Virus genome (UHGV): UHGV-0098743
Length of the DNA: 12,455 bases
Direction: 5' to 3' (one strand)
From: a virus
How positions within the stretch are numbered: position 1 is the stretch's first letter; each line of letters starts with the position of its first letter. This document shows positions 78 through 12,455 of the stretch, one piece after another. A model generated the notes under the pieces. The model searched no databases, was not told the origin of the DNA, and was given only the letters and a program-made list of their open reading frames with translations. The position numbers were made by a program, and so were the translations under genes.

Positions 78-179
78 TTGCGTATCCTTTTATGTCTCCT
101 CACCGTCTGGTCGGTGTTTTGCTGAGACTTCTAACTTCCTGTTTTTGTTGGTGTTGTCCTTACACCGTCCAATCATGAT

Positions 180-223
180 TGGTGGGCTGGCGGGAGTTGA
201 ACCCGCGTCCGAAATTCCTACAT
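180..223 (-). other. ssrA: tmRNA (ssrA) 3'-terminal fragment: prophage attachment-site core
   Basis: The reverse complement reads ATGTAGGAATTTCGGACGCGGGTTCAACTCCCGCCAGCCCACCA, matching the 3' end of E. coli tmRNA as I recall it (ending CGGGUUCAACUCCCGCCAGCUCCACCA) apart from a one-base difference near the CCA end. Only about 44 nt are present; a full 363-nt ssrA would overlap the integrase ORF, so this is a partial att-core copy. Confidence 0.7.
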
Positions 224-317
224 ACCATTTTTAGCCTAATAAAAACATACATTTACTTTTAAAATCATCACGTTATTGTTTTTTGTATTTGTCGGGTTTT
301 ATGTGATTTTAAGTCTG

Positions 318-337
318 TGCCGCCAAAGTGCCGCCAT
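318..337. repeat. Tandem direct repeat GTGCCGCCA x2 (11-bp period) between the integrase stop and the att core; candidate Int arm-type site
   Basis: GTGCCGCCA at 318-326 and 329-337, read directly; the position in the att arm next to the int 3' end. Function is inferred. Confidence 0.25.
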
Positions 338-340
338 AAA

Positions 341-1366
341 TTAACGGTTCCAGTTGAGATTGTGAAGCGGGTTTTTTGTCACTGCATCTTCCAGGTGGTC
401 GGGTGCGAAGTGGGCGTAAATCATTGTCATTTTAATATCGGCGTGGCCCAGAATATCGCGCAGTACCAGTATATTTCCGCCGTTCATCATAAAATGACTG
501 GCGAAAGTATGGCGCAGAACGTGGGTGCATTGGCCCTCTGGCAAGTCAATGCTTGCCCGCTTGACTGCACGCTCAAAGGCTTTTCTGCATGGCGTGAATA
601 ACTTCCCTCGGTTCTTTGGTAACTCGTCATACAGCGCCTGAGATATAGGAACCGTTCGGTTTTTCTTGCCCTTTGTTTTGGTGTAGGTGATTCGGTATTT
701 AGATAACTGATGGCCCTGCAGGTTTTCGGCTTCACTCCAGCGGGCGCCGGTAGCTAAGCAGATTTTTGCAATCATGAGCAGGCTGGGGTTTTCTGAATCA
801 GCGCAGGCATCCAGCAGGCGTTTAATTTCTTCCGGCGCCAGGAACGCCAGTTCCCCCTCTGCGATTTTAAATGTTGGAAGCCCGGCGAGTGGGTTGGGGG
901 CTGACCAGTGGCCCAGCTTTTTCAGCGTGCCAAAAACTGATGATAGGTTGCGTTGTTCAAGGTTTACCGTGCGGGGCTTAACTGGCGACATAGGCAAGCC
1001 ATCTTCATTTTTGACTTCACCTTTTAGGCGTGCTTCACGGTATTTTGTAAAGTCACCGGCAGTCAGCTCCGAGGCAATGGGATCACCCAGGCCATTACAA
1101 ATAATGTTAAGTTTTGCCATCAGGCGCTTGGGGTCAGCAAGAGTCTGTCCGTAAAGTGAATGCCACTGCTTAATTACTTCTGACAATTGGCGCCGATCAT
1201 CCTTTTCGCCTAGCCATGGCTTTTTGTTCACTTCATCCATTGTGAAGTTTTCGAATGCTATGGCCTCGCCTTTCGTCGCAAATTGCTTGCGCACGCGCTT
1301 GCCATCGCGCCCGCTAGGGTAGCACTCACACAACCATTTCCCGTTTGGCTGTTTTCTGATGGTCAT
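341..1366 (-). CDS. int: Tyrosine recombinase / phage integrase (P2 Int-like), 341 aa
   Basis: Full-length ORF; the C-terminal catalytic region has HVLRHTFASHF and LGHADIKMTMIYAHF (R-H-R-Y signature of tyrosine recombinases). Lies next to the ssrA-derived att core and is transcribed toward it, as in P2/186-type prophages. ATG at 1366..1364. Confidence 0.93.
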   Translation of the reverse strand: MTIRKQPNGKWLCECYPSGRDGKRVRKQFATKGEAIAFENFTMDEVNKKPWLGEKDDRRQLSEVIKQWHSLYGQTLADPKRLMAKLNIICNGLGDPIASELTAGDFTKYREARLKGEVKNEDGLPMSPVKPRTVNLEQRNLSSVFGTLKKLGHWSAPNPLAGLPTFKIAEGELAFLAPEEIKRLLDACADSENPSLLMIAKICLATGARWSEAENLQGHQLSKYRITYTKTKGKKNRTVPISQALYDELPKNRGKLFTPCRKAFERAVKRASIDLPEGQCTHVLRHTFASHFMMNGGNILVLRDILGHADIKMTMIYAHFAPDHLEDAVTKNPLHNLNWNR

Positions 1367-1367
1367 A

Positions 1368-2000
1368 TCAAAGGCTCTTAATAACTTTTAAGACGTGGCC
1401 TACAACCTCGATATCATCCAGGCTGCACTCAAAAGATGATTCATCTTGATGAACTACCAATCTGTTTCCGGGGATACGGGTTAACTTCACAATACTTTTT
1501 ATTCCATCAATATCGACCAACCACACCCCATTTACTGGTGGTGTTTGGCTGCGATCCACTAGGTATGAATCACCACCGGTATTTACTAAGAGTAAGTTAC
1601 TGGAATTGGAAGGAAGCAAGCTGCTGTCAATGATTGCTTTACCTGTATCCACCAAAGAGCCGCTAGAAAGTGTCACTTTGTCAATTTCGGGAGAAACAAG
1701 GTCAGAAAGGTGTTTAACTTTGCCGGAGTTCACGAAATTGATATCTTTTTGCATGTCAATGTTTGAACCCGGCTCGCCTTGCCCTGTGGTAAGCCAGAGT
1801 AAAGAAACGCCTGTCTCAAGAGCGCACTGAATTACCCATTCTGCAGGGAAACTATCTCTTAAGTATCTGTTTGCCATGGTGCTTTTAGATGCGCCAAGAT
1901 GGTCGCACAATTGCTGTCTTGATTTGAAATCGTAGGCTGCCATTAGCCTATGGATGGCCTCTCTACCCCCGGTGTTCTCGCCTGTCTTTACTTGTATCAT
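1368..2000 (-). CDS. cI: CI-like immunity repressor (phage 186 CI type: N-terminal HTH, C-terminal S24-peptidase-like fold), 210 aa
   Basis: N-terminal segment QQLCDHLGASKSTMANRYL looks like an HTH. The C-terminal half has the topology of lambda CI/LexA C-domains (GGDSY, VKL, VVGHVLKV). Its stop lies 1 nt from the int start (cI-int operon) and it is divergent from the cox/cII operon. Whether the Ser/Lys dyad is catalytically competent cannot be judged by eye. Confidence 0.8.
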   Translation of the reverse strand: MIQVKTGENTGGREAIHRLMAAYDFKSRQQLCDHLGASKSTMANRYLRDSFPAEWVIQCALETGVSLLWLTTGQGEPGSNIDMQKDINFVNSGKVKHLSDLVSPEIDKVTLSSGSLVDTGKAIIDSSLLPSNSSNLLLVNTGGDSYLVDRSQTPPVNGVWLVDIDGIKSIVKLTRIPGNRLVVHQDESSFECSLDDIEVVGHVLKVIKSL

Positions 2001-2012
2001 TTTTTAATCCTA

Positions 2013-2041
2013 TTGACGTATCAAATATTGGATCGTAGTAT
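2013..2041 (+). promoter_or_regulatory. Candidate sigma70 early lytic promoter (pR/Pe-like) for the cox-cII operon
   Basis: TTGACG (2013-2018), 17-bp spacer, TAGTAT (2036-2041); about 80 bp upstream of the cox-like start and overlapping operator repeat R1. Confidence 0.45.
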
Positions 2042-2067
2042 CTTTTCGTATCAACTCTTGAATCGTA
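2017..2067. promoter_or_regulatory. Two 21-bp direct-repeat operator candidates (R1 2017-2037, R2 2047-2067) in the cI / cox intergenic switch region
   Basis: R1 CGTATCAAATATTGGATCGTA and R2 CGTATCAACTCTTGAATCGTA match at 18 of 21 positions, with centres 30 bp apart; each has internal partial dyad symmetry (TCAA...TTGA). R1 contains a GATC. A possible leftward promoter for cI (TTGATA -35 at 2054..2049, CAATAT -10 at 2030..2025 on the minus strand) overlaps them. Confidence 0.5.
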
Positions 2068-2119
2068 TAAAACAAGATAAAACGACGTAAACCAAACCTT
2101 AACCGAGAGATACTGCACT

Positions 2120-2368
2120 ATGAGCACTGATATTTCAATTCGTGTACCAAAAGTGATAGCGACGCCAGCCGAGTTTGCTAAGTGGGAAGGGTATTCCCGT
2201 GGTTCTGTTTATCAGATGATTCATAACGGTAAATTGGCTAACTACATTGAAAAGAAAGAAAAAAACAAAGGCCGCGTATTCATCCTTTACCTCAAGTACA
2301 AAAAAGACCAAGCAAGCAAAAACATGGACAAGTCTGCATTCAATTACAACGTTGTAGTTGGTTGTTAA
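2120..2368 (+). CDS. Cox/Apl-like excisionase and switch regulator, 82 aa
   Basis: First gene of the rightward operon, divergent from cI. The segment PAEFAKWEGYSRGSVYQMIHNGKL resembles the HTH region of P2 Cox (EFAKLIGKSTGAVRRMIDKGKL). RBS GAGAG upstream. Confidence 0.7.
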   Translation: MSTDISIRVPKVIATPAEFAKWEGYSRGSVYQMIHNGKLANYIEKKEKNKGRVFILYLKYKKDQASKNMDKSAFNYNVVVGC

Positions 2369-2400
2369 GTTCAATTATGTGAACTTTTGAGGTATGAAAC

Positions 2401-2910
2401 ATGTTTGATTATAAGATTTCCAAACATCCGCATTTTGATGAAGCCTGCCGGGCTTTCTCGCTGCGTCACAACATGGCGAAGCTGGCAGAACGCGCAGGAA
2501 TGAATGTCCAGACGCTGCGCAACAAGCTGAACCCGGAGCAACCGCATCAACTTACCCCGCCGGAGATCTGGCTGCTGACTGATATCACAGAAGACTCAAC
2601 GCTGGTTGACGGTTTTCTGGCTCAAATCCATTGCCTGCCGTGCGTGCCATTGAATGAAGTGGCAAAAGAGAAGCTGCCGCATTACGTCATGAGCGCTACT
2701 GCTGAAATCGGACGTGTTGCTGCCGGTGCCGTATCGGGTGATGTGAAAACCACCGCAGGCCGCCGCGATGTTATCAGCAGCATTAACTCTGTTACTCGTC
2801 TGATGGCACTGGCTGCCGTTTCGATGCAGGCGCGTTTACAGGCTAACCCGGCGATGGCAAGCGCGGTGGATACCGTGACGGGCCTCGGCGCTTCGTTTGG
2901 TCTGATCTGA
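2401..2910 (+). CDS. cII: Phage 186 CII-like transcriptional activator (CP76 family), 169 aa
   Basis: Same length as 186 CII (169 aa) and same position (second gene after apl/cox). N-terminal HTH-like segment NMAKLAERAGMNVQTLRNKLNP. Strong RBS GAGGT 7 nt upstream. Confidence 0.75.
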   Translation: MFDYKISKHPHFDEACRAFSLRHNMAKLAERAGMNVQTLRNKLNPEQPHQLTPPEIWLLTDITEDSTLVDGFLAQIHCLPCVPLNEVAKEKLPHYVMSATAEIGRVAAGAVSGDVKTTAGRRDVISSINSVTRLMALAAVSMQARLQANPAMASAVDTVTGLGASFGLI

Positions 2911-2917
2911 GGTGGTT

Positions 2918-3118
2918 ATGCTGACTAAAGAACCCTCTTTTGCGTCACTTCTCATAAAGCAAAGCCCGGCAATGCACTACGGTCACGGCTGGATCATGGG
3001 GAAGGATGGCAAACGCTGGCACCCGTGCCGCTCTCAGGATGAACTGCTGGCTGACCTGTCCACAACCAAACAGGGGAAATCATGGCTATTGAAGGCGCTG
3101 CAGCGACTGTCCCATTAA
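2918..3118 (+). CDS. Hypothetical small early protein, 66 aa (alternative GTG start at 2912)
   Basis: ORF in the early operon directly after cII; GGTGG just upstream of the ATG. Sits where 186 has the fil/dhr host-takeover genes, but I see no recognisable motif. Confidence 0.45.
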   Translation: MLTKEPSFASLLIKQSPAMHYGHGWIMGKDGKRWHPCRSQDELLADLSTTKQGKSWLLKALQRLSH

Positions 3119-3423
3119 GCCCCGGTAAAAGGCTGGACGCATTGAATCATATTGCGGAATTGAGAGCTAAAGTGTTTGGCCTAAATATTGAGCCGGAGCT
3201 TGAAAGGTTTATTAAAGATATGCGCGATCCACGCGACGTAAATAATAAACAGAATGAGCGGGCACTGGCAGCCATTTTTTATATGGCAAAAATTCCGGCA
3301 GAACGTCACGGCGTCAATATTAGTGATCTGACTACTGACGAAAAGCGGGAACTGGTGAAAGCAATGAATCATTTTCGTGCAGTGGTGAGCTTATTTCCCA
3401 AACGGCTAACCATGCCGAATTAA
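3082..3423 (+). CDS. Hypothetical early protein, 113 aa
   Basis: ORF with RBS AGGGGA; overlaps the upstream ORF by 37 nt; no recognisable motif. Confidence 0.5.
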   Translation: MAIEGAAATVPLSPGKRLDALNHIAELRAKVFGLNIEPELERFIKDMRDPRDVNNKQNERALAAIFYMAKIPAERHGVNISDLTTDEKRELVKAMNHFRAVVSLFPKRLTMPN

Positions 3424-3490
3424 TCCACAACAGAAATTAATGGCGTAAACCCGCCGGGCTTCTTATTGCCCAAATTCAGGAGAAACAACT

Positions 3491-3724
3491 ATGCGAAATA
3501 TTGAAACCCGTACCACTAAAACCGGACCAGATGATGCTGGTCTCAACCTGTTGCTGACTGAGGCACGCAAAGAAGAACGCCGGGGACGCGCAGATGTGAT
3601 GGCTGCGCGTCTGGATTCTTTAGCTGCTCGTATCGTGTCACGTCAGCTTAACCACACGGAAGCGGCTGAGCTGCTGCGTCAGGAAGCTGTGAAGATTCAG
3701 AACGAAGCGCAGGAGATCCACTGA
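3491..3724 (+). CDS. Hypothetical early protein, 77 aa, probably helical
   Basis: Good RBS CAGGAGAAA; its stop overlaps the next start (TGATG). Confidence 0.55.
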   Translation: MRNIETRTTKTGPDDAGLNLLLTEARKEERRGRADVMAARLDSLAARIVSRQLNHTEAAELLRQEAVKIQNEAQEIH

Positions 3725-3951
3725 TGGCTGATTCAATGGACCTTGTACAGCAGCGCGTTGAAGAAGAACGCCCGCGCCATATCCACACCGCCCGCAATAA
3801 AACGCCGGGCGTTTCCCGTGTTCTCTGCATTGATTGCGATGCGCCGATCCCGCCAGCTCGCCGCCGCGCCATTCCGGGCGTGCAGTGCTGCGTCACTTGT
3901 CAGGAAATCGCAGAGCTGAAAGGCAAACACTACAACGGGGGTGCTGTATGA
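3724..3951 (+). CDS. TraR/DksA-family C4 zinc-finger protein (P2 orf82-like), 75 aa
   Basis: CIDC-x17-CCVTC gives the C-x2-C...C-x2-C spacing typical of phage TraR/DksA zinc fingers; it is translationally coupled to neighbours on both sides. Confidence 0.75.
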   Translation: MADSMDLVQQRVEEERPRHIHTARNKTPGVSRVLCIDCDAPIPPARRRAIPGVQCCVTCQEIAELKGKHYNGGAV

Positions 3952-4808
3952 GCACTATTCTGAAATGGGCGGGAAATAAAACCTCCATCATGCCGGAACT
4001 GATTAAGCATCTTCCTGCTGGCACGCGACTGGTTGAACCTTTCGCGGGTTCATGCGCTGTAATGATGGCGACAGACTATCCTCATTATCTTGTCGCGGAT
4101 ATTAACCCAGACCTGATAAATCTTTTTAAGCATATTGCATTTGACTGCGAGAAATTTATTTCAAATTCAAAAGGATTCTTTTCAGGCACAAATAGCGCTG
4201 AGTCTTATTACAACATCCGTCAGGATTTTAATCATTCGGCTGAAACCACCGATTTCTGGAAAGCTGTATTTTTCCTTTATCTTAATCGCCATGGTTATCG
4301 TGGGTTGTGCCGCTATAATTTGAGCGGTCATTTTAATGTCCCTTACGGTAATTATAAAAATCCGTATTTTCCTGAAAGTGAAATACGCGCTTTTGCAGAA
4401 AAGGCTCAACGCGCAACGTTTATCTGTGCCAGCTATGACGAAACACTGGCGCTGCTGCAGGCTGGTGATGTTGTTTATTGTGATCCGCCATACGATGGCA
4501 CATTTAGCGGTTATCACACTGCCGGTTTTACAGAAGACGATCAGTATCATCTGGCGTCTATTCTTGAGCGCCGGTCATCAGAAGGTCATCCGGTTATCGT
4601 GTCCAACAGCGACACGTCCCTGACCCGTTCGCTTTATCGTAATTTTACCCGCCATCGCATCACTGCAAAGCGCAGCATGGGTGTGGCTGCCGGCGAGAGT
4701 AAATCTGCAGCAGAAATCATCGCCACAAAATCAGCTGGCTGGTTTGGTGTCGATTTGGCGTCCGGTCCAGATATCTCGGTGGAAACTGAGGTGCGGGCGT
4801 GGCAGTGA
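3948..4808 (+). CDS. dam: DNA adenine methyltransferase (Dam-like, N6-adenine, D12 class), 287 aa
   Basis: N-terminus [38 protein letters not shown] parallels E. coli Dam (LKWAGGK...LVEPFVGAGSV); catalytic motif [15 protein letters not shown] (DPPY). ATG at 3948 overlaps the upstream stop (ATGA). The six-frame ORF starting at 3834 is an in-frame upstream extension and is unlikely to be the true start. Confidence 0.9.
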
Positions 4809-6238
4809 GTAAATTCACATTACATAATGCACCAACCACCGGCGGCTCGAATGAGGCCGCCGTGGCCTTTTCATGGAATAACCCCAAAAAAGCGGTTAAC
4901 CCATATCTGGACCCGGCGGAAGTTGCGCCGGGGTCTGCGCTTTCAAACCTGATTGCTCTTTACGCTGCGGATAACGAGCAGGAGCAGCTGCGCCGTGAGG
5001 CGCTGAGCGATGAGGTCTGGGAACGCTATTTCTTCAATGAATCCCGTGATCCTGTCCAGCGCGAAATGGAGCAGGACCGGCTGATTAGTCGTGCCAAAAT
5101 GGCGCGCGAGCAGCAGCGTTTTAATCCCGATCTGGTCATTCTGGCTGACGTTAACGCCATGCCGTCCCATATCAGCAAGCCTCTGCTGGAGCGGATTAAA
5201 TATTTCCATAGCCTGGGCAGAGCAAAAGCCTATTCCCGCTACCTGCGCGAAACAATTAGGCCCTGTCTTGAGCGGCTGGAGCGCGTGCGTGACAGTCAGG
5301 TGTCTGCCTCTTTCCGGTTCATGGCAAGTCATGACGGGCTGGAGGGGCTGCTGGTACTGCCTGAAATGAATCAGGATCAGGTCAAGCGTCTTTCCACGCT
5401 GGTTGCGGCTCATATGAGCATGTGTCTTGATGCGGCCTGCGGTGATCTGTTTGTCAGCGACGATGTTAAACCAGAAGAAATCCGCCAGGCATGGGAAAGG
5501 GTTGCAGCAGAGGCGATGCGCCTTGAGATCATCCCGCCTGCGTTTGAGCAGTTACGCCGCAAAAAGCGTCGACGCAAGCCGGTGCCCTATGAACTGATCC
5601 CACCGTCGCTGGCGCGGATGCTGTGCGCGGACTGGTGGTATCGCAAATTGTGGCAGATGCGCTGCGAGTGGCGGGAGGAACAGCTGCGTGCTGTCTGCCT
5701 GGTCAACAAAAAAGCGTCCCCGTATGTCAGCTATGAAGCCGTGATCCACAAGCGCGAGCAGCGCCGCAAATCGCTGGAGTTCTTCCGCTCACATGAGCTG
5801 GTCAACGAAGACGGTGACACGCTGGACATGGAAGACGTGGTGGCGTATGTCCGCAACAACCCGGATAAGCTGCACCTTTTCGTTGATAACGGCTCACTGG
5901 TGGCAACCGGTGCCAGCTCTATGTCATGGGAATACCGCTACACCCTGAACGTTGTGATCGAGGATTTCAGCGGCGACCAGAATCTGCTGATGGCTCCCGT
6001 GTTGCTGTGGCTCAGCGAAAATCAGGCGGACGCCATCAACAACCCGGAGCTGCGCGAAAAACTGTTCACCTTTGAAGTGGATATTCTGCGCAATGATGTG
6101 TGCGATATCAGCCTGAATCTGCAACTGACGGAGCGTGTACTGGTCAGCACTGACGGCGGTATCTCAACGGTTGAGGCGGAGCCAGAACCCGACGAGCCAG
6201 AAGAAATGTGGACGGTGAAACGTGGAAAATCTGCATAA
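4799..6238 (+). CDS. Hypothetical protein, 479 aa, in the position where P2/186 carry replication gene A; function unknown
   Basis: Long ORF with host-like codon usage, GTG start overlapping the dam stop. I could not find a Walker A, HUH or other catalytic motif. Contains the basic stretch [17 protein letters not shown] and an acidic C-terminal tail [11 protein letters not shown]. Its stop overlaps the S-like gene by 17 nt. Confidence 0.7.
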
Positions 6239-6668
6239 AGTGGATGAGTGGCTGACAGCGCTGCTGGCGAATCTGGAGCCGGCTGCGCGTCAGCACATGA
6301 TGTGTGAACTGGCGCAGCAGCTGCGTCGAAATCAGCAGAACAACATCCGCCTGCAGCGCAACCCCGACGGAACCGGCTACGAGCCGCGCCGGGTAACAGC
6401 CCGCAGCAAAAAGGGGCGCATCAAACGCCAGATGTTTGCAAAACTTCGCACCACCAAATACCTGAAAGCTGCAGCGAGCGCGAACTCTGCGAGCGTGCAG
6501 TTTGTGGGACAAGTGCAGCGTATCGCTCGGGTACACCATTACGGCTTACGTGATCGTGTTAGCCGCAATGGACCATTAGTAATTTATAGAGAACGAAGGT
6601 TACTTGGATTCAATGAGAATAATGATTGCATTAAAAATATATTAATTATGTCTTTATTTAATACATAA
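6222..6668 (+). CDS. S: Phage virion morphogenesis / tail-completion protein (P2 gpS / Mu gpG family), 148 aa; C-terminus possibly altered by the downstream insertion
   Basis: Pattern [28 protein letters not shown] ... [20 protein letters not shown] resembles the gpS/gpG family as I remember it. The last ~20 codons ([18 protein letters not shown]) lie in abruptly AT-rich DNA. Confidence 0.55.
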
Positions 6669-6680
6669 TGTATCGTGGTA

Positions 6681-6718
6681 AAAAATAGTAAAGCCAAATG
6701 GCTGGCTAATTGCCAGCC
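6681..6718 (-). terminator. Putative Rho-independent terminator downstream of the ariB-like gene
   Basis: Stem GGCTGGC (6700-6706), loop TAATT, stem GCCAGCC (6712-6718); on the minus strand it is followed by the U-rich tract AUUUGGCUUUACUAUUUUU. Confidence 0.5.
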
Positions 6719-6724
6719 GTAACT

Positions 6725-7582
6725 CTATGAAATTAGTGATATTTTTTGATTGTAGTAATCATAATCCGCATGTTCTTCAGTAAAGAATAATTCAAAAGCC
6801 GTTAGCATATTTGAATAAAAACTATCTTTTGATATTGCAGTTTTTCTCTCATTTTTAGCTAAGTAATTGGTTATGAATCTTAATGATGCTGAGAATAGAA
6901 AGTGCCCCTTTATCCAATGCGTTATGCAAGTGTTGGCAGGAAATTGAATGTTGTTTTTTTCTGCTAACCCTACATTTCTGAAATCATCAGGAAGGGTTTG
7001 AATATAAGCATTTATCTTATCTTGACATGTTTTGTAAGAGTTTTTTGATTGCATAAATCTATCGCATGAATCACCTACTACGGAATAGCCACGCTGATTT
7101 AAATGATTGTAAATATCTAAGGCAATTAGGTCTTCAATATTGTTATAAAACTCTAATAGCCAGGAGTTTATATTTATTCCTTGGATTTCTTTGGCACTGT
7201 ATCTTCCCATGTGTTTTAACACACGGGATAGGACTTTCTCATCGACTATAGTATTTTCAATTGAGTAACCTTTTGTATAGATGATGTTTGTATGATTTAC
7301 TAAGTTGGATGAAAAATGATTCAGATCTGCATCGCGGGCAACAATTGCGTTTATTTGTCCTGATGTGATTCGCTCAATATAAGGTTCTAATGCTTCACAC
7401 CCTCCAACTTCTTGCACTTCAACACTTAGTCGACCATTTTTTTTGAAAACTATTTCCCAAAATCCAATATCATCCTCACCTTCAACATATACCATGATAT
7501 CAGCATCATAAAACATGCTGATAACATTTTCCGCCTCGTCAGACCAATTAAAGTTATCTGTTCGAATCTCATTATTGGACAT
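6725..7582 (-). CDS. ariB: DUF4435/TOPRIM-like (OLD-family nuclease-like) protein, AriB-like effector candidate of a PARIS-type defence pair, 285 aa from ATG 7582 (alternative GTG start at 7612)
   Basis: N-terminal motif MVYVEGEDD followed by AIVARDAD, i.e. the acidic E...DxD arrangement of TOPRIM/OLD nuclease domains. AT-rich codon usage. Its start overlaps the upstream ATPase gene stop by 11 nt (ATGTCCAATAA). Domain identity is from memory of family motifs, not a search. Confidence 0.75.
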   Translation of the reverse strand: MSNNEIRTDNFNWSDEAENVISMFYDADIMVYVEGEDDIGFWEIVFKKNGRLSVEVQEVGGCEALEPYIERITSGQINAIVARDADLNHFSSNLVNHTNIIYTKGYSIENTIVDEKVLSRVLKHMGRYSAKEIQGININSWLLEFYNNIEDLIALDIYNHLNQRGYSVVGDSCDRFMQSKNSYKTCQDKINAYIQTLPDDFRNVGLAEKNNIQFPANTCITHWIKGHFLFSASLRFITNYLAKNERKTAISKDSFYSNMLTAFELFFTEEHADYDYYNQKISLIS

Positions 7583-8825
7583 TGACAAGTTTCTCCATGT
7601 TAAAAATTGCACTCCTGTATTTTGAAGCTACTTCTGGAGAATGTGTGGCAGCTATTACTTGTGCATTGGGATTGAGTTTTTTGATTGCTGGGATAATGTT
7701 TCTTTGCCATTGAATATGTAGGGAGAGTTCAGGCTCATCTGTTAGGAAAATATATTGTTTTTCTCTTTGTAATAGGGTTTCTATGAATAAAATAAGTAAT
7801 TGCTTCTCACCTGAAGATAAATTTTCCTGAATTATTGGTCCGTAAGTATTCTTTATGGAAAGTATTCCGCCTTGAAAGTCAAATTCCTTATCAGTAATAA
7901 ATTCTTTTAAAATACTTAAAAATTGTTCAATGGGAGCGAAAACTAAAGATGTTTTTTCTTTAGATTTTAAAGACATTCTAATTATTTTTTGTGTCTTTCT
8001 TAGCGCTTCAATTGAGCGGATGTCAAAACCATCTTTTTTATTTTGTTTTAATTCTGCAATGGTGTGATCAATAGTGTCAACATGGAAATTTATTTTCCGA
8101 CGGACATTCATATCAATAGCGTTTAGTTGTGTGTACGCACTTAAAAGGTTTTGTTTTTCTTCCTCCTTGTTAAATTGAATGTTGTACGCCTTATCATCAA
8201 TATCATCTTTACTATATAGAATAGATGCTAAAACTTCTTTTTGAAGTTCTAATGCAATATCTCTCGCTCGTTGAGATAATTCAAGTTGATATTTTGTTAA
8301 TTCCTGCATTAATTCTGATAGTTTATAATCGACAGGGTTGATAAAGCGAGAGCCGTATTTGTCTCTAACCTCAAAGTCGTCACTATTCCTTAGTCTATAG
8401 ACGGATAAAGATGAGAGTGAAACCAGTTTTGCTAATTCTGCTCTTAACTCCTCAGTCTCTTCTTGTGCTCTGCGTCTATAACTGAGGGAGATTCTTCTGT
8501 CATCGGCGTTGAATAGTCGGATGGTATGTTTTTTTGATGAAAGTTGATACTCTATTTTAGAGAACGGTGATGCATCACTCTCGATTTTCTTAATTTTTAT
8601 TGTCTTAGTTTTCTTTTTGTCCTTTAGTTTTATTTCGGCACTATTGAAATCATTGTTGTTAATGCCATCAAGGTCAATTGATAAAATTGAATGCAAAATA
8701 TTCATAAAAGTTGTTTTGCCGGTTCCATTCCTTCCAATGATGATGTTTACATCATCATTAAAAGAGCAAAGAGCATTTAATCTTTGCCAAAAACCATTGA
8801 TAGCGATGCTTTGTATTTTATACAT
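7572..8825 (-). CDS. ariA: ABC-type ATPase (AAA_15/AAA_21, OLD/SMC-like), AriA-like sensor candidate of a PARIS-type defence pair, 417 aa from ATG 8825 (TTG at 8828 possible)
   Basis: Walker A GRNGTGKTT near the N-terminus; a long insert domain; C-terminal ABC signature-like SSGEKQLL, Walker B IFLTDEPELSLH and H-loop ATHSPEV. Strong RBS AAGGAG 7 nt before the ATG. AT-rich. Confidence 0.82.
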   Translation of the reverse strand: MYKIQSIAINGFWQRLNALCSFNDDVNIIIGRNGTGKTTFMNILHSILSIDLDGINNNDFNSAEIKLKDKKKTKTIKIKKIESDASPFSKIEYQLSSKKHTIRLFNADDRRISLSYRRRAQEETEELRAELAKLVSLSSLSVYRLRNSDDFEVRDKYGSRFINPVDYKLSELMQELTKYQLELSQRARDIALELQKEVLASILYSKDDIDDKAYNIQFNKEEEKQNLLSAYTQLNAIDMNVRRKINFHVDTIDHTIAELKQNKKDGFDIRSIEALRKTQKIIRMSLKSKEKTSLVFAPIEQFLSILKEFITDKEFDFQGGILSIKNTYGPIIQENLSSGEKQLLILFIETLLQREKQYIFLTDEPELSLHIQWQRNIIPAIKKLNPNAQVIAATHSPEVASKYRSAIFNMEKLVNVQ

Positions 8826-8868
8826 CAACTTACTCCTTGTTTTGGTTGAGTCGAACTTATCAACTGTT

Positions 8869-8886
8869 TGTACCAGCTATAACACA
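8869..8886 (+). promoter_or_regulatory. TGT-N12-ACA dyad upstream of V: possible Ogr/Delta-type late-activator site (P_V-like)
   Basis: TGT (8869-8871), 12 nt, ACA (8884-8886), read directly. P2 late promoters carry this dyad near -55. Here the dyad centre is only about 56 bp from the V start codon, so the spacing is tight and this may be coincidence. Confidence 0.3.
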
Positions 8887-8915
8887 ATTATGCTGGTTCG
8901 TACGAATCATTTCAA
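8886..8915 (-). promoter_or_regulatory. Candidate sigma70 promoter for the ariA-ariB operon
   Basis: On the minus strand: TTGAAA (8915..8910), 18-bp spacer, ATAATT (8891..8886); predicted leader about 55 nt to the ariA ATG. Confidence 0.35.
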
Positions 8916-8933
8916 ATGTTCAATATAGGCAGT

Positions 8934-9512
8934 ATGAACACACAACTTACCGAAATCATGCGCCTTATCACCAATCTGATCCGTACCGGCACTGTGACCG
9001 AAGTGGACCGGAAAAAGTGGCTGTGTCGGGTGAAAGTGGGCGAGCTTGAAACTAACTGGATTAACTGGCTGACGCTGCGCGCCGGTGGTGCCCGTACATG
9101 GTGGTGTCCGTCGCCGGATGAGCAGGTGGTGTTGCTGAGCATGGGCGGCAATCTGGAAACCGCTTTTGTGCTGCCCGCTATCTACTCCAATCAGTTTCCG
9201 CCACCGTCGGATTCCGTGGACGGCTGCGTGACGGAGTACCCGGACGGGGGATGGTTTGAGTATGAACCCGCCACCGGACGGTGGCATGTCAGGGGCATCA
9301 AATCCATGGTGATCGAGGCATCAGACAGTGTCACCTACAAAACCGGTGAGTTTGTGGTGGAGGCTGACACCACGCGCATTAACAGCGAGGTGGTGATCAA
9401 TGGCGGCGTCACCCAGGGCGGCGGCGCAATGAGTTCTAACGGGATCGTAGTTGATGACCATGAGCATACTGGCGTTCTGAAAGGCGGCGACAACACGGGG
9501 GGACCGGTATGA
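8934..9512 (+). CDS. V: Baseplate assembly protein V (P2 gpV-like spike), 192 aa (ORF opens at 8916; 8934 is the homologous start)
   Basis: N-terminus MNTQLTEIMRLITNLIRTGTVTEVD parallels P2 gpV (MNTLANIQELARALRNMIRTG...); conserved WLTLRAGGARTWWCPS and C-terminal HEHTG. Stop overlaps the W start (ATGA). Confidence 0.85.
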   Translation: MNTQLTEIMRLITNLIRTGTVTEVDRKKWLCRVKVGELETNWINWLTLRAGGARTWWCPSPDEQVVLLSMGGNLETAFVLPAIYSNQFPPPSDSVDGCVTEYPDGGWFEYEPATGRWHVRGIKSMVIEASDSVTYKTGEFVVEADTTRINSEVVINGGVTQGGGAMSSNGIVVDDHEHTGVLKGGDNTGGPV

Positions 9513-9868
9513 CGTTGTATATCGGTATGAGCAGGAATGACGGGCAGACCATTGCAGATACAGACCATCTGCGCCAGTCGGTGCGGGATATTCTGCTGAC
9601 GCCGCAGGGCAGTCGTCTTGCGCGTCGGGAATATGGTTCCCTGCTGTCTGCCCTGATAGACCAGCCGCAGACCCCGGCGCTGCGCCTGCAGATTATGTCT
9701 GCGGTCTATGTGGCGCTGAACCGTTGGGAGCCGCGCCTTACGCTGGACTCCATCACCATCAACGGCAATTTTGATGGCTCTATGGTGGTTGAACTTACCG
9801 GACACGGCAATAACGGCGCACCGGTTTCCCTTTCCGTATCAACAGGAGCAGACAATGGCAGTCATTGA
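9509..9868 (+). CDS. W: Baseplate assembly protein W (P2 gpW / GP25-like), 119 aa
   Basis: Size and position between V and J; gpW-like N-terminal region (DLRQSVRDILLTPQGSRLARREYGS). Confidence 0.85.
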   Translation: MTLYIGMSRNDGQTIADTDHLRQSVRDILLTPQGSRLARREYGSLLSALIDQPQTPALRLQIMSAVYVALNRWEPRLTLDSITINGNFDGSMVVELTGHGNNGAPVSLSVSTGADNGSH

Positions 9869-10763
9869 CCTTTCCCGGCTACCGCCGCCGCAGATTGTGG
9901 ATGTGCCGGACTTTGAGGCATTGCTGGCAGAACGCAAGGCCGCCTTTGTGGCCCTCCATCCGGCTGATGAACAGGAGGCTGTTATGCGCACGTTAGCGCT
10001 GGAGTCAGAACCTGTCACCAAACTGCTGCAGGAAAATACTTACCGCGAAATCCTGCTGCGTCAGCGAATTAATGAGGCTGCGCAGGCGGTCATGGTGGCC
10101 TATTCCATGGGAAATGACCTTGAACAACTGGCAGGTAACTGCAACGTGAAGCGCCTGACGGTAGTCCCTGCAGATAATGACTCGGTGCCGCCGGTCGCCG
10201 CAGTGATGGAAAGTGATGAAGCATTACGCCAGCGCATTCCTGCAGCATTTGAGGGGCTGTCCGTTGCAGGGCCGACGGGAGCCTATGAGTTCCACGCCAG
10301 AAGTGCCGACGGGCGGGTGGCTGATGCCAGCGCAACCAGTCCGGCACCGGCAGAGGTGGTGCTTACCGTGCTGAGCCGTGAGGGGGACGGTACGGCAGGG
10401 GCTGACCTGCTGGCGGTGGTTGAGCAGGCGCTTAACAGTGAAAAAGTTCGCCCGGTGGCAGACCGCCTGACGGTGCGCAGCGCAGAAATTATTCCGTACA
10501 GCGTGGACGCAACGATCTTCCTTTATCCGGGGCCGGAGGCTGAGCCGGTGATGGCAGAAGCAAAAGCCAGTCTGCAGAAATACATCGCCAGTCAGACGCG
10601 GCTGGGACGTGATATCCGCCGCAGCGCCATTTATGCCGCGTTGCATGTGGAGGGCGTCCAGCGTGTGGAGCTGGCGTCCCCGCAGGGTGATGTGGTGCTG
10701 GATAAGACGCAGGCGGCATCCTGTACTGAATGGAGCATCATCAACGGGGGCACGGATGAATAG
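9855..10763 (+). CDS. J: Baseplate assembly protein J (P2 gpJ-like), 302 aa
   Basis: Starting at ATG 9855 (RBS AGGAG at 9844-9848) gives 302 aa, the same as P2 gpJ; conserved order V-W-J-I-H. The longer ORF from 9771 is an in-frame extension overlapping W. Confidence 0.88.
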   Translation: MAVIDLSRLPPPQIVDVPDFEALLAERKAAFVALHPADEQEAVMRTLALESEPVTKLLQENTYREILLRQRINEAAQAVMVAYSMGNDLEQLAGNCNVKRLTVVPADNDSVPPVAAVMESDEALRQRIPAAFEGLSVAGPTGAYEFHARSADGRVADASATSPAPAEVVLTVLSREGDGTAGADLLAVVEQALNSEKVRPVADRLTVRSAEIIPYSVDATIFLYPGPEAEPVMAEAKASLQKYIASQTRLGRDIRRSAIYAALHVEGVQRVELASPQGDVVLDKTQAASCTEWSIINGGTDE

Positions 10764-11361
10764 CCTGTTGCCGCCGGGTTCGTCGCCGCTTGAGCGCCGA
10801 CTGGCGCAGACCTGCAGCGGGATTTCCGATCTGCAGGTATCGCTGCGTGATTTGTGGAATCCGTCAATCTGCCCGGTCAGATTCCTGCCTTATCTGGCCT
10901 GGGCGTTTTCTGTTGACCGCTGGGATGAGAGCTGGACAGAAAGCGTCAAGCGCCGCGTTGTGCAGGACGCTTTTTATATCCATCAGCACAAGGGGACAAC
11001 CAGCGCCGTGCGGCGCGTGGTGGAGCCGTTCGGCTTTCTGATCCGCATCATTGAGTGGTGGCAGACTGGCGAAATACCAGGGACGTTCCGTCTGGATATT
11101 GGCGTGCAGGACCAGGGCATAACAGAAGAAACCTATCTGGAGCTGGAGCGCCTGATCGGTGACGCCAAACCGTGCAGCCGTCACCTGGTTGGTATGTCCA
11201 TCAACCTGCAGACAGGTGGCCCGTATTTTGTGGGCGCAGCCACCTACACCGGCGAAGAAATCACGATCTACCCGTATATCAACGAAACCATTATTTCCGG
11301 CGGCACCGCTTATGAGGGCGGGGCGGTCCATGTTATTGACACGATGAGAGTGAACCCATGA
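10756..11361 (+). CDS. I: Baseplate/tail protein I (P2 gpI-like), 201 aa
   Basis: Position between J and H; ATG at 10756 overlaps the J stop; the longer ORF from 10609 is an out-of-context extension. Confidence 0.82.
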   Translation: MNSLLPPGSSPLERRLAQTCSGISDLQVSLRDLWNPSICPVRFLPYLAWAFSVDRWDESWTESVKRRVVQDAFYIHQHKGTTSAVRRVVEPFGFLIRIIEWWQTGEIPGTFRLDIGVQDQGITEETYLELERLIGDAKPCSRHLVGMSINLQTGGPYFVGAATYTGEEITIYPYINETIISGGTAYEGGAVHVIDTMRVNP

Positions 11362-12455
11362 GCGCAAAATTTTACACCCTGCTGACGGATATCGGCGCGG
11401 CGAAACTGGTAAGCGCCGCCGCGCTCGGTGTCCCACTAAAAATTACCCATATGGCGGTGGGCAGCGGTGGTGGTATGCTGCCCACACCCAACGCGCAACA
11501 GACCGCGTTAGTGGCTGAGGAACGCCGCGCAGCGCTGAATATGCTGTATATCGACCCACAGAACAGCAGCCAGATTATTGCTGAGCAGGTGATCCCGGAA
11601 AATGAGGGCGGGTGGTGGATTCGTGAAGTCGGCCTGTTTGATGAAACAGGTGCGCTAATTGCTGTGGGAAACTGCCCGGAGAGCTACAAGCCGAAGCTGG
11701 CGGAGGGCAGCGGACGCACGCAGACCGTGCGAATGGTACTGATTACCAGCAGCACGGATAACATCACCCTGAAAATTGACCCCGCTGTGGTTCTGGCAAC
11801 CCGCAAATATGTGGATGATAAGGTGCTGGAACTTAAGGTGTATGTGGATGACCTGATGGCAAAGCATCTTGCTGCGGTTGATCCTCATTCGCAATATGCA
11901 CCAAAAGACAGTCCGACTCTGACAGGCATGCCTAAAACGCCAACGCCACCGGCAGGAAACAACAGCACCCTGATTGCCAGTACAGCCTTTGTACAGGCCG
12001 CTATTCTTGCCATGATAGGTGGCGCACCGGCAACGCTGGATACGCTGAAAGAAATTGCGGCAGCTATCAATAATGACCCGAATTTCAGTACCACCATTAA
12101 CAATGCGCTGGCACTGAAAGCACCACTGGCAAGCCCAGCCCTGACCGGAACGCCAACGGCTCCGACTGCGGCGCAGACTGTGAACAATACGCAGATTGCC
12201 ACTACAGCATTTGTGAAGGCAGCTATTGCCGGGCTGGTTGGTTCATCGCCGGAGGCGCTGGACACACTGAATGAACTGGCAGCTGCGCTGGGGAATGATC
12301 CTAACTTTGCGACAACAGTGATGAACGCGCTGGCGGGGAAACAGCCCCTCGATGCCACTTTGACTAACCTCAGCGGGAAAAGTGTTTCAGCCCTTCTACA
12401 ATACCTTGGTTTGGGAGAAGCGGCAACGAGGAACGTCGGAACGGATACCGGGCAA
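11358..12455 (+). CDS. H: Tail fibre protein H (P2 gpH-like), 5' part only; the ORF runs off the end of the window
   Basis: N-terminus MSAKFYTLLTDIGAAKLVSAA...MAVGSGGGMLP...ESYKPKLAEGSGRTQTVRMV...YVDDKV closely parallels the conserved P2 gpH N-terminal domain. No stop through 12455 (366 codons). Absent from the ORF track only because it is open-ended. Confidence 0.88.
   Translation, partial: MSAKFYTLLTDIGAAKLVSAAALGVPLKITHMAVGSGGGMLPTPNAQQTALVAEERRAALNMLYIDPQNSSQIIAEQVIPENEGGWWIREVGLFDETGALIAVGNCPESYKPKLAEGSGRTQTVRMVLITSSTDNITLKIDPAVVLATRKYVDDKVLELKVYVDDLMAKHLAAVDPHSQYAPKDSPTLTGMPKTPTPPAGNNSTLIASTAFVQAAILAMIGGAPATLDTLKEIAAAINNDPNFSTTINNALALKAPLASPALTGTPTAPTAAQTVNNTQIATTAFVKAAIAGLVGSSPEALDTLNELAAALGNDPNFATTVMNALAGKQPLDATLTNLSGKSVSALLQYLGLGEAATRNVGTDTGQ
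11910..12353 (+). repeat. Tandem duplicated ~74-codon tail-fibre repeat module inside H
   Basis: Units starting SPTLTGMPKTPTPP... (11910) and SPALTGTPTAPTAA... (12132) align over 74 aa with about half the residues identical, including TAFV.AAI, LDTL.E.AAA, NDPNF.TT and NALA.K. Confidence 0.7.

Follow-up and report, generated by a model that had tools for sequence, protein, structure and literature searches.

A probable P2-type late promoter upstream of gene V and a putative divergent promoter for a PARIS-type gene pair in a P2-like prophage

When two operons are read in opposite directions out of a very short spacer, where do their promoters lie, and can both be occupied at once? The question is raised by the virus genome UHGV-0098743 (12,455 nucleotides, henceforth the window), a P2/186/Fels-2-like (Peduoviridae) prophage segment. 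Between its tail genes S and V lies a block with two minus-strand genes at 31–36% GC, against 55–60% around it, and V is the first gene of a plus-strand operon, V-W-J-I-H (gene calls, Pfam). The early operon in the window includes a Dam-like methylase gene. An earlier note on this DNA had proposed that the spacer between V and the two leftward genes, ariA and ariB, holds both a late-promoter-type dyad for V and a divergent promoter for the defence genes. It had set the limits of this spacer at 8829–8933, but in a 99.9%-identical prophage of E. coli strain S1 the RefSeq starts correspond to window positions 8825 (ariA), 7582 (ariB) and 8934 (V). The ariA start is thus most likely the ATG at 8825 and not the TTG at 8828, and the starts of ariA and V in S1 make the true intergenic spacer 8826–8933, i.e. 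108 bp. The features referred to below are, in window coordinates:

341–1366, minus strand: int
1368–2000, minus strand: cI
4799–6238: fused ORF of 479 aa, in which the 5' part of gene A (replication) runs in frame into tail gene R
6222–6668, plus strand: gene S (tail completion; Pfam Phage_tail_S), left edge of the hotspot
6700–6718, minus strand: terminator-like GC-rich hairpin with a T-run, 3' of ariB, between ariB and S
6725–7582, minus strand: ariB, DUF4435/Toprim-type effector (PADLOC AriB, Pfam DUF4435, RefSeq coordinates)
7572–8825, minus strand: ariA, ABC/AAA_15 ATPase (PADLOC AriA, Pfam AAA_15/AAA_21, RefSeq coordinates)
8833–8838, minus strand: Shine-Dalgarno sequence AAGGAG of ariA, 7 nt before the ATG at 8825 (read from the sequence)
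8868–8887, plus strand: dyad TTGT-N10-ACAA of the probable late promoter of V (P_V), with the core TGT-N12-ACA at 8869–8886
8887–8892, minus strand: candidate -10 element CATAAT of an ariA-ariB promoter, 17-nt spacer to the -35
8910–8915, minus strand: candidate -35 element TTGAAA of the same promoter (promoter scan)
8921–8926, plus strand: probable -10 element CAATAT of P_V, 7 nt before the ATG of V, no -35 hexamer
8934–9512, plus strand: gene V, baseplate spike (Pfam Phage_base_V and Apex motif; RefSeq start in strain S1)

The dyad upstream of V

The TGT-N12-ACA dyad was found as described in the earlier note: positions 8869–8886 of the plus strand read TGTACCAGCTATAACACA, and the extended form TTGT-N10-ACAA spans 8868–8887. 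TGT-N12-ACA is the consensus of four P2 late promoters, an element of partial dyad symmetry (PMC3931495). Frequency as such was dropped as support for a promoter, as the bare motif is in no excess over chance either in the window (two matches, 2.98 expected) or in the 27.5-kb relative from strain S1 (seven against 6.4). What sets this copy beyond chance is its position relative to V, the centre of the dyad being 56.5 nt upstream of the V ATG, and positional conservation was used in place of bare motif statistics.

For this comparison we assembled 54 V-homologue loci, one genome per species, and included the phages Fels-2, MLG42, SEN8, P2, 186 and 813R9 and E. coli EC596. Once V-upstream regions at least 80% identical had been removed, 38 non-redundant regions from Enterobacterales prophages and phages were left. 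In a megablast search with the spacer, the matches to about 390 records of phages and E. coli began exactly at the V ATG; the spacer is therefore not directly alignable to most relatives, and all alignments were anchored on the ATG. A perfect TGT-N12-ACA stands 55.5 or 56.5 nt before the V ATG in 32 of the 38 regions, the distance from the centre to the A of the ATG being 55.5 nt in 22 loci and 56.5 nt in 10. A -10 element (CAnnnT) moves by 1 nt in register with the dyad. When the distance is 55.5 nt, A at -11 and T at -7 are invariant (22/22) and C at -12 is found in 19 of 22; when it is 56.5 nt, T at -8 occurs in all 10 loci and A at -12 in 8. The window falls into the second class, with CAATAT at 8921–8926, 7 nt and then ATG, as does P2 with CAATCT, 7 nt and ATG. 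Insert-free S-V spacers, in which the earlier note had proposed to look for the dyad, were represented by 17 loci with a 68-bp spacer, and all 17 have it at the canonical position (e.g. Fels-2 and MLG42, at the same distance from V), so that this check does not refute P_V. Most of the sampled wild prophages carry a perfect dyad, while the type phages P2 and 186 have no perfect TGT-N12-ACA before V. In their P_V regions, with which the earlier note had suggested a comparison, P2 agrees in geometry and has TTGT-N11-ACAA (L004 2740–2767), and 186 has the TGT half only (L005 2160–2185).

A position weight matrix (PWM) scan of 8780–8990 detected no plus-strand -35/-10 pair above 5.2 bits, and a P_V without a -35 hexamer is what would be expected of an activator-dependent promoter. 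The activators of P2 late promoters contact RNA polymerase. The last T of the -10 element lies 7 or 8 nt before the ATG, which is a normal distance to a start site and is what a leaderless V predicts. No purine-rich block is conserved across the family at -6 to -1 before V; the window itself has AGG at 8927–8929, just before the V ATG. In the P2 RefSeq record (NC_001895), an 'activator binding site; activation of pV promoter' is annotated at 10239–10266 and the start of V-operon transcription at 10308, exactly where the coding sequence of V begins and 55.5 nt downstream of the centre of the site. The P_O and P_P starts of P2 are likewise 55–56 nt from the centre of the site that they share, and P2 is cited, via Christie & Calendar 1985, among the classic sources from which leaderless genes of E. 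coli are known (PMC4633059). The reservation in the earlier note that the dyad sits too close to V hence falls away: with a V mRNA that is very probably leaderless there would be no leader to accommodate, and 56.5 nt is the canonical distance.

The sequence before V combines a TGT-N12-ACA dyad with a -10 element that lacks a -35 partner, and it heads the V-W-J-I-H operon. Given its conservation in 32 of 38 loci, the coupled -10 element and the geometry of the P2 record, the dyad is very likely a P2-type late promoter, P_V, of the Ogr/B kind that the earlier note had suggested. The V mRNA is very probably leaderless, or has a leader of 1 nt at most, with its start predicted at the ATG. Dependence of P_V on an activator of the Ogr/B/delta type would follow by analogy with P2. 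Such a promoter is not a new type of element and belongs to a well-known kind, the P2-family late promoters with a leaderless V. For the annotation of the spacer the matter is settled in that the dyad can be entered as P_V and V as very probably leaderless, and the worry over geometry is gone.

The defence genes and their candidate promoter

By gene content ariA-ariB is a PARIS-type defence pair, with predicted anti-phage activity: an ABC-type ATPase, AriA, is encoded beside a DUF4435/Toprim protein, AriB, in one operon in which the two genes overlap by 11 nt. The PADLOC models match with E-values of 1.3e-36 (AriA) and 8.6e-23 (AriB), and Pfam finds AAA_15 and AAA_21 in AriA and DUF4435 (5e-26) in AriB; AriA also matches the PtuA/Septu-type ATPase models of PADLOC, more weakly than the AriA model. 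The anti-phage activity of PARIS systems is triggered by anti-restriction proteins. A second version of the cassette is present in E. coli EC596 and in two IMG/VR contigs, with an AriA that is 85% identical and DNA about 78% identical to the window over the matched stretch from the cassette to V. Other locations of this PARIS cassette were searched for, and every copy found was at the S-V site.

With no other gene upstream on the minus strand, ariA-ariB needs a promoter in the spacer. The earlier note had read a sigma70-like site TTGAAA-18-ATAATT on the minus strand; the site is present, but the better fit is TTGAAA (8915–8910)-17-CATAAT (8892–8887), with 10 of 12 consensus matches in the promoter scan. 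In this form the -10 hexamer does not overlap the ACA of the dyad, as had been thought, but abuts it, sharing one base with the extended ACAA only. A simple PWM gives the pair 10.9 bits, compared to 6.3 bits for the next site on either strand of 8780–8990, and minus-strand sites within V are weak (up to 5.1 bits). The score was reached in 105 of 5000 dinucleotide shuffles of the spacer (2.1%) and in none of 206 windows of equal size in the AT-rich cassette. In the EC596-type variant, including the IMG/VR contigs, both hexamers and the 17-nt spacing are identical, while the intervening bases agree at 9 of 17 positions; the blocks conserved between the window and EC596, ACAATTATGC and ATTTCAAATGTT, partly coincide with P_V elements and also reach past those that are known.

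The hexamers cannot be recognised in the cassettes in which AriA is 63% identical (phage 813R9 and [Erwinia] mediterraneensis), nor in a Klebsiella MAG, and DNA as rich in AT as this yields promoter-like matches readily (6 in 6500–9300, where 10.4 would be expected). Of the proposal of a divergent promoter for ariA-ariB, it can be said that the best site in the spacer is kept in one diverged variant and is not conserved in the more distant PARIS cassettes. We lean towards TTGAAA-17-CATAAT as the putative ariA-ariB promoter. Its predicted start would lie near 8880, inside the dyad, and give ariA a leader of about 55 nt with a strong Shine-Dalgarno sequence and an unremarkable predicted fold (z -0.88); an Rfam scan of 6500–9200 produced no matches at E≤1.

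A perfect 6-bp repeat, ACCAGC/GCTGGT, brackets the candidate ariA -10. This inverted repeat, ACCAGC-N14-GCTGGT (8872–8877/8892–8897), was considered as an operator or RNA hairpin and rejected: the fold is unremarkable, and the repeat is probably fortuitous since it is not conserved in the EC596 variant.

The variable S-V site and the state of the element

P2-like phages have three moron regions, and the site between S and V (orf30) has already been described as one of them (PMC6823313); the hotspots described by Rousset et al. 2022 are Q-A (old/tin) in P2-like phages and psu-int in P4-like satellites, not S-V (PMC9122126). In these two accounts of P2 variable or moron regions, which were consulted without a targeted literature search, transcription of the leftward genes is undiscussed. 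Of about 50 loci, about 33 have a low-GC insert of 0.57–3.8 kb between S and V. With about two exceptions the neighbour of V is a minus-strand gene, whose start codon lies 38–158 nt from the V ATG. The S-V moron site is in other words a busy one, with low-GC cassettes in about two thirds of the sampled loci, nearly all directed away from V. Among their contents are PARIS, an FRG-domain protein (EC556) and many unannotated ORFs.

Pairs of loci in which the first 240 nt of V are at least 85% identical were used to compare the 77 nt before V. The median identity of this stretch is 0.82 between pairs of empty sites and drops to 0.32–0.34 between different cassette states, even with V about 90% identical. 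Since the spacers are otherwise unrelated, the retained dyad, -10 element and spacing appear to be under selection, and as the sequence of the spacer tracks the cassette and not the V backbone, the P_V region is effectively part of the mobile or variable module. At the other end, the last 15–20 or so codons of S (window 6570–6668) lie in low-GC DNA of cassette type. Homology between S proteins stops at residues 131–147, varying by locus. The left recombination boundary would thus be inside the 3' end of S, and the C-termini of S differ between cassettes. In the Klebsiella MAG (L057 3830–3990), an insertion of about 100 bp with inverted-repeat ends, CTTCAAGTTGCATGTT ... AACATGCGACTTCAAG, sits between the PARIS-linked dyad and a truncated V; its appearance is that of a small, palindromic mobile element that has disrupted P_V.

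We found no complete E. coli genome with the whole window. Positions 179–5842 are 100% identical to strain GDSC2227PM, and positions 5839–12444 are 99.9% identical to S1 and other strains, with the junction of the fusion between genes A and R at about 5839–5842. The junction is explained either by a natural deletion, with loss of the genes for capsid, packaging and lysis, or by a chimeric assembly; EC596 and EC556, whose genomes are complete, hold similar remnants without head and lysis genes. No Ogr/B/delta activator gene is present in the window. In an element that lacks this gene, and whose left half reached the tail genes through a deletion or as a chimera, P_V may never be switched on. 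The intact S1 prophage (99.9% identical) does encode an ogr/Delta-like zinc-finger protein, WP_000980498.1, and it carries extended TTGT-N10-ACAA dyads at three late-operon starts, those of the divergent terminase/scaffold pair, of V and of the sheath gene. In S1 (L061 3100–3260), the ATG annotated for the terminase ATPase gene (position 3114, minus strand) and the centre of the dyad shared by P and O (3161–3178) are 55.5 nt apart; the P transcript of P2 has a 23-nt leader. The S1 terminase ATPase gene may be leaderless too, or its start may be mis-annotated.

Overlap of the two promoters and comparison with known systems

The predicted starts of V and ariA are about 54 bp apart on opposite strands, and the dyad, measured on the predicted ariA promoter, would extend from about -6 to about +12. 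Polymerase is predicted to cover about 8860–8935 at the ariA promoter and about 8879–8954 at the V promoter, footprints that overlap almost completely, so that joint occupancy would be impossible. From this geometry, mutual exclusion of P_V and the ariA promoter is likely.

The explanation that best accounts for the spacer, and one that we regard as reasonably probable, is that 8826–8933 is a compact divergent control region composed of P_V and a sigma70 promoter for ariA. Rightwards, P_V would consist of a site for a zinc-finger activator of the Ogr/B/delta type and the -10 element CAATAT without a -35, and transcription of V-W-J-I-H would begin at the ATG at 8934 or one base before it, leaderless as in P2. 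Leftwards, a constitutive sigma70 promoter would produce the ariA-ariB transcript from near 8880. In the lysogen, where the activator would be absent and P_V silent, the defence promoter alone would fire and PARIS would be expressed; once activator and polymerase occupy P_V late in lytic growth, the defence promoter would be expected to become closed to polymerase. Repressors commonly act around the start region of a promoter. An activator bound to the dyad and recruiting polymerase to P_V would be sitting just there with respect to the ariA promoter. If the defence promoter does start inside the dyad, the locus would offer a simple, testable case of a phage timing the defence that it carries.

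To go from exclusion to regulation is another matter. Functional cross-regulation between P_V and the ariA promoter, as far as geometry lets us infer it, seems unlikely. Unlikely as well is a general form of the idea taken together with its regulatory consequence: every S-V cassette would bring or rebuild its own P_V, set flush against the coding sequence by the leaderless V, and nest its own promoter inside, and an Ogr/B-type activator would act as a dual switch, turning the tail genes on and the self-carried defence (here PARIS) off in the lytic cycle. Were this improbable combination true, it would amount to a general and previously undescribed coupling of late activation to the silencing of self-carried immunity. 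Across the family, the best minus-strand sites vary in position and quality, and they fall in the dyad in about 13 of 30 loci; given spacers no longer than about 60–110 nt, this number is not clearly above expectation, and we make no general claim of nesting.

It is a real possibility, if something short of a probable one, that both promoters exist and work independently, the overlap being a packing effect of a leaderless V and a short spacer, with no meaningful late shut-off of defence-gene expression or interference with it. The overlap need not be adaptive, as short spacers (about 40–160 nt) force some of it on nearly all cassettes; with the first start codon always 38–158 nt from the V ATG it could hardly be avoided, and the predicted minus-strand starts of the other cassettes cluster on the dyad no more than the spacer forces them to. 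AriA and AriB made earlier would moreover persist anyway. What speaks for a functional connection in the window is that the dyad, at about -6 to +12, would occupy a classical position of a repressor at the predicted ariA promoter, and that the two predicted polymerase footprints coincide.

Somewhat more doubtful is the reading in which P_V alone is real, TTGAAA-17-CATAAT is a chance match in AT-rich DNA and ariA-ariB is transcribed from elsewhere, the spacer or the beginning of V holding a start that is weaker or departs from consensus. It gains from the lack of enrichment of promoter-like matches in the cassette region (6 versus 10.4 expected), from the lack of conservation of the leftward site in the PARIS variants of 813R9, Erwinia and Klebsiella, and from the scatter, in position and quality, of the best minus-strand sites of other cassettes. 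Against a chance match, the pair is the sole strong site in 8780–8990, at a score that only 2% of shuffles attain, its hexamers and spacing were kept in the variant of about 78% identity despite the poor agreement between them (9/17), and V offers nothing above 5.1 bits on the minus strand from which the genes might be read instead. That the dyad itself is a chance TGT-N12-ACA, with V served by read-through or by another promoter, is hardly credible, since motif counts at expectation are all that favours it, while the conserved position of the dyad in 32 of 38 loci, its coupling to a -10 element and a geometry identical to the annotated P_V of P2 oppose it, and read-through from S is unlikely across 2.3 kb of antisense cassette that ends in a terminator-like hairpin.

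A compact divergent control region made of P_V and a putative ariA promoter has its nearest counterpart in P2. There the Ogr-dependent P_V (Christie & Calendar 1985; NC_001895) also lies immediately before V and follows an AT-rich, non-essential gene that is read leftwards, its site is also centred about 55–56 nt before the ATG, and its -10 element, CAAT(A/C)T at -13 to -8 in the two together, is likewise without a -35. Transcription starts on the ATG and the mRNA is leaderless, which has been mapped in P2 and is inferred here, as is dependence on the activator. The P2 RefSeq record also has an annotated terminator at the place equivalent to the hairpin between ariB and S. The spacers of the two are unrelated outside these motifs, the window has a perfect TGT-N12-ACA where P2 has TTGT-N11-ACAA, and the leftward unit is a two-gene PARIS operon in the window and orf30 in P2. 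The nested divergent defence promoter predicted in the window resembles the orf30/P_V arrangement.

The region upstream of V (orf32) in prophages of the Fels-2/186 type is similar as well: in Fels-2 the dyad TGTGCCACTGCTGGCACA is centred 55.5 nt before the ATG and is followed by the -10 element CAACCT at -12 to -7 and by a V-W-J-I operon as in the window, in which the promoter is 1 nt farther from the ATG. In contrast, the S-V spacer of the insert-free prophages of Fels-2 type is 68 bp long and GC-rich, and has no divergent gene or leftward promoter. Overlapping divergent promoters that share a single regulator, which activates one of them and occludes its partner, form a general class. The window would resemble these pairs in geometry only, with a dyad upstream of one promoter and over the predicted start of the other. 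Finally, the S-V site is like the hotspots of Rousset et al. 2022 (PMC9122126) in that a low-GC defence cassette, here PARIS, lies between conserved genes and is transcribed against the late operons, and in its high turnover, 33 of about 50 loci of the family having different inserts.
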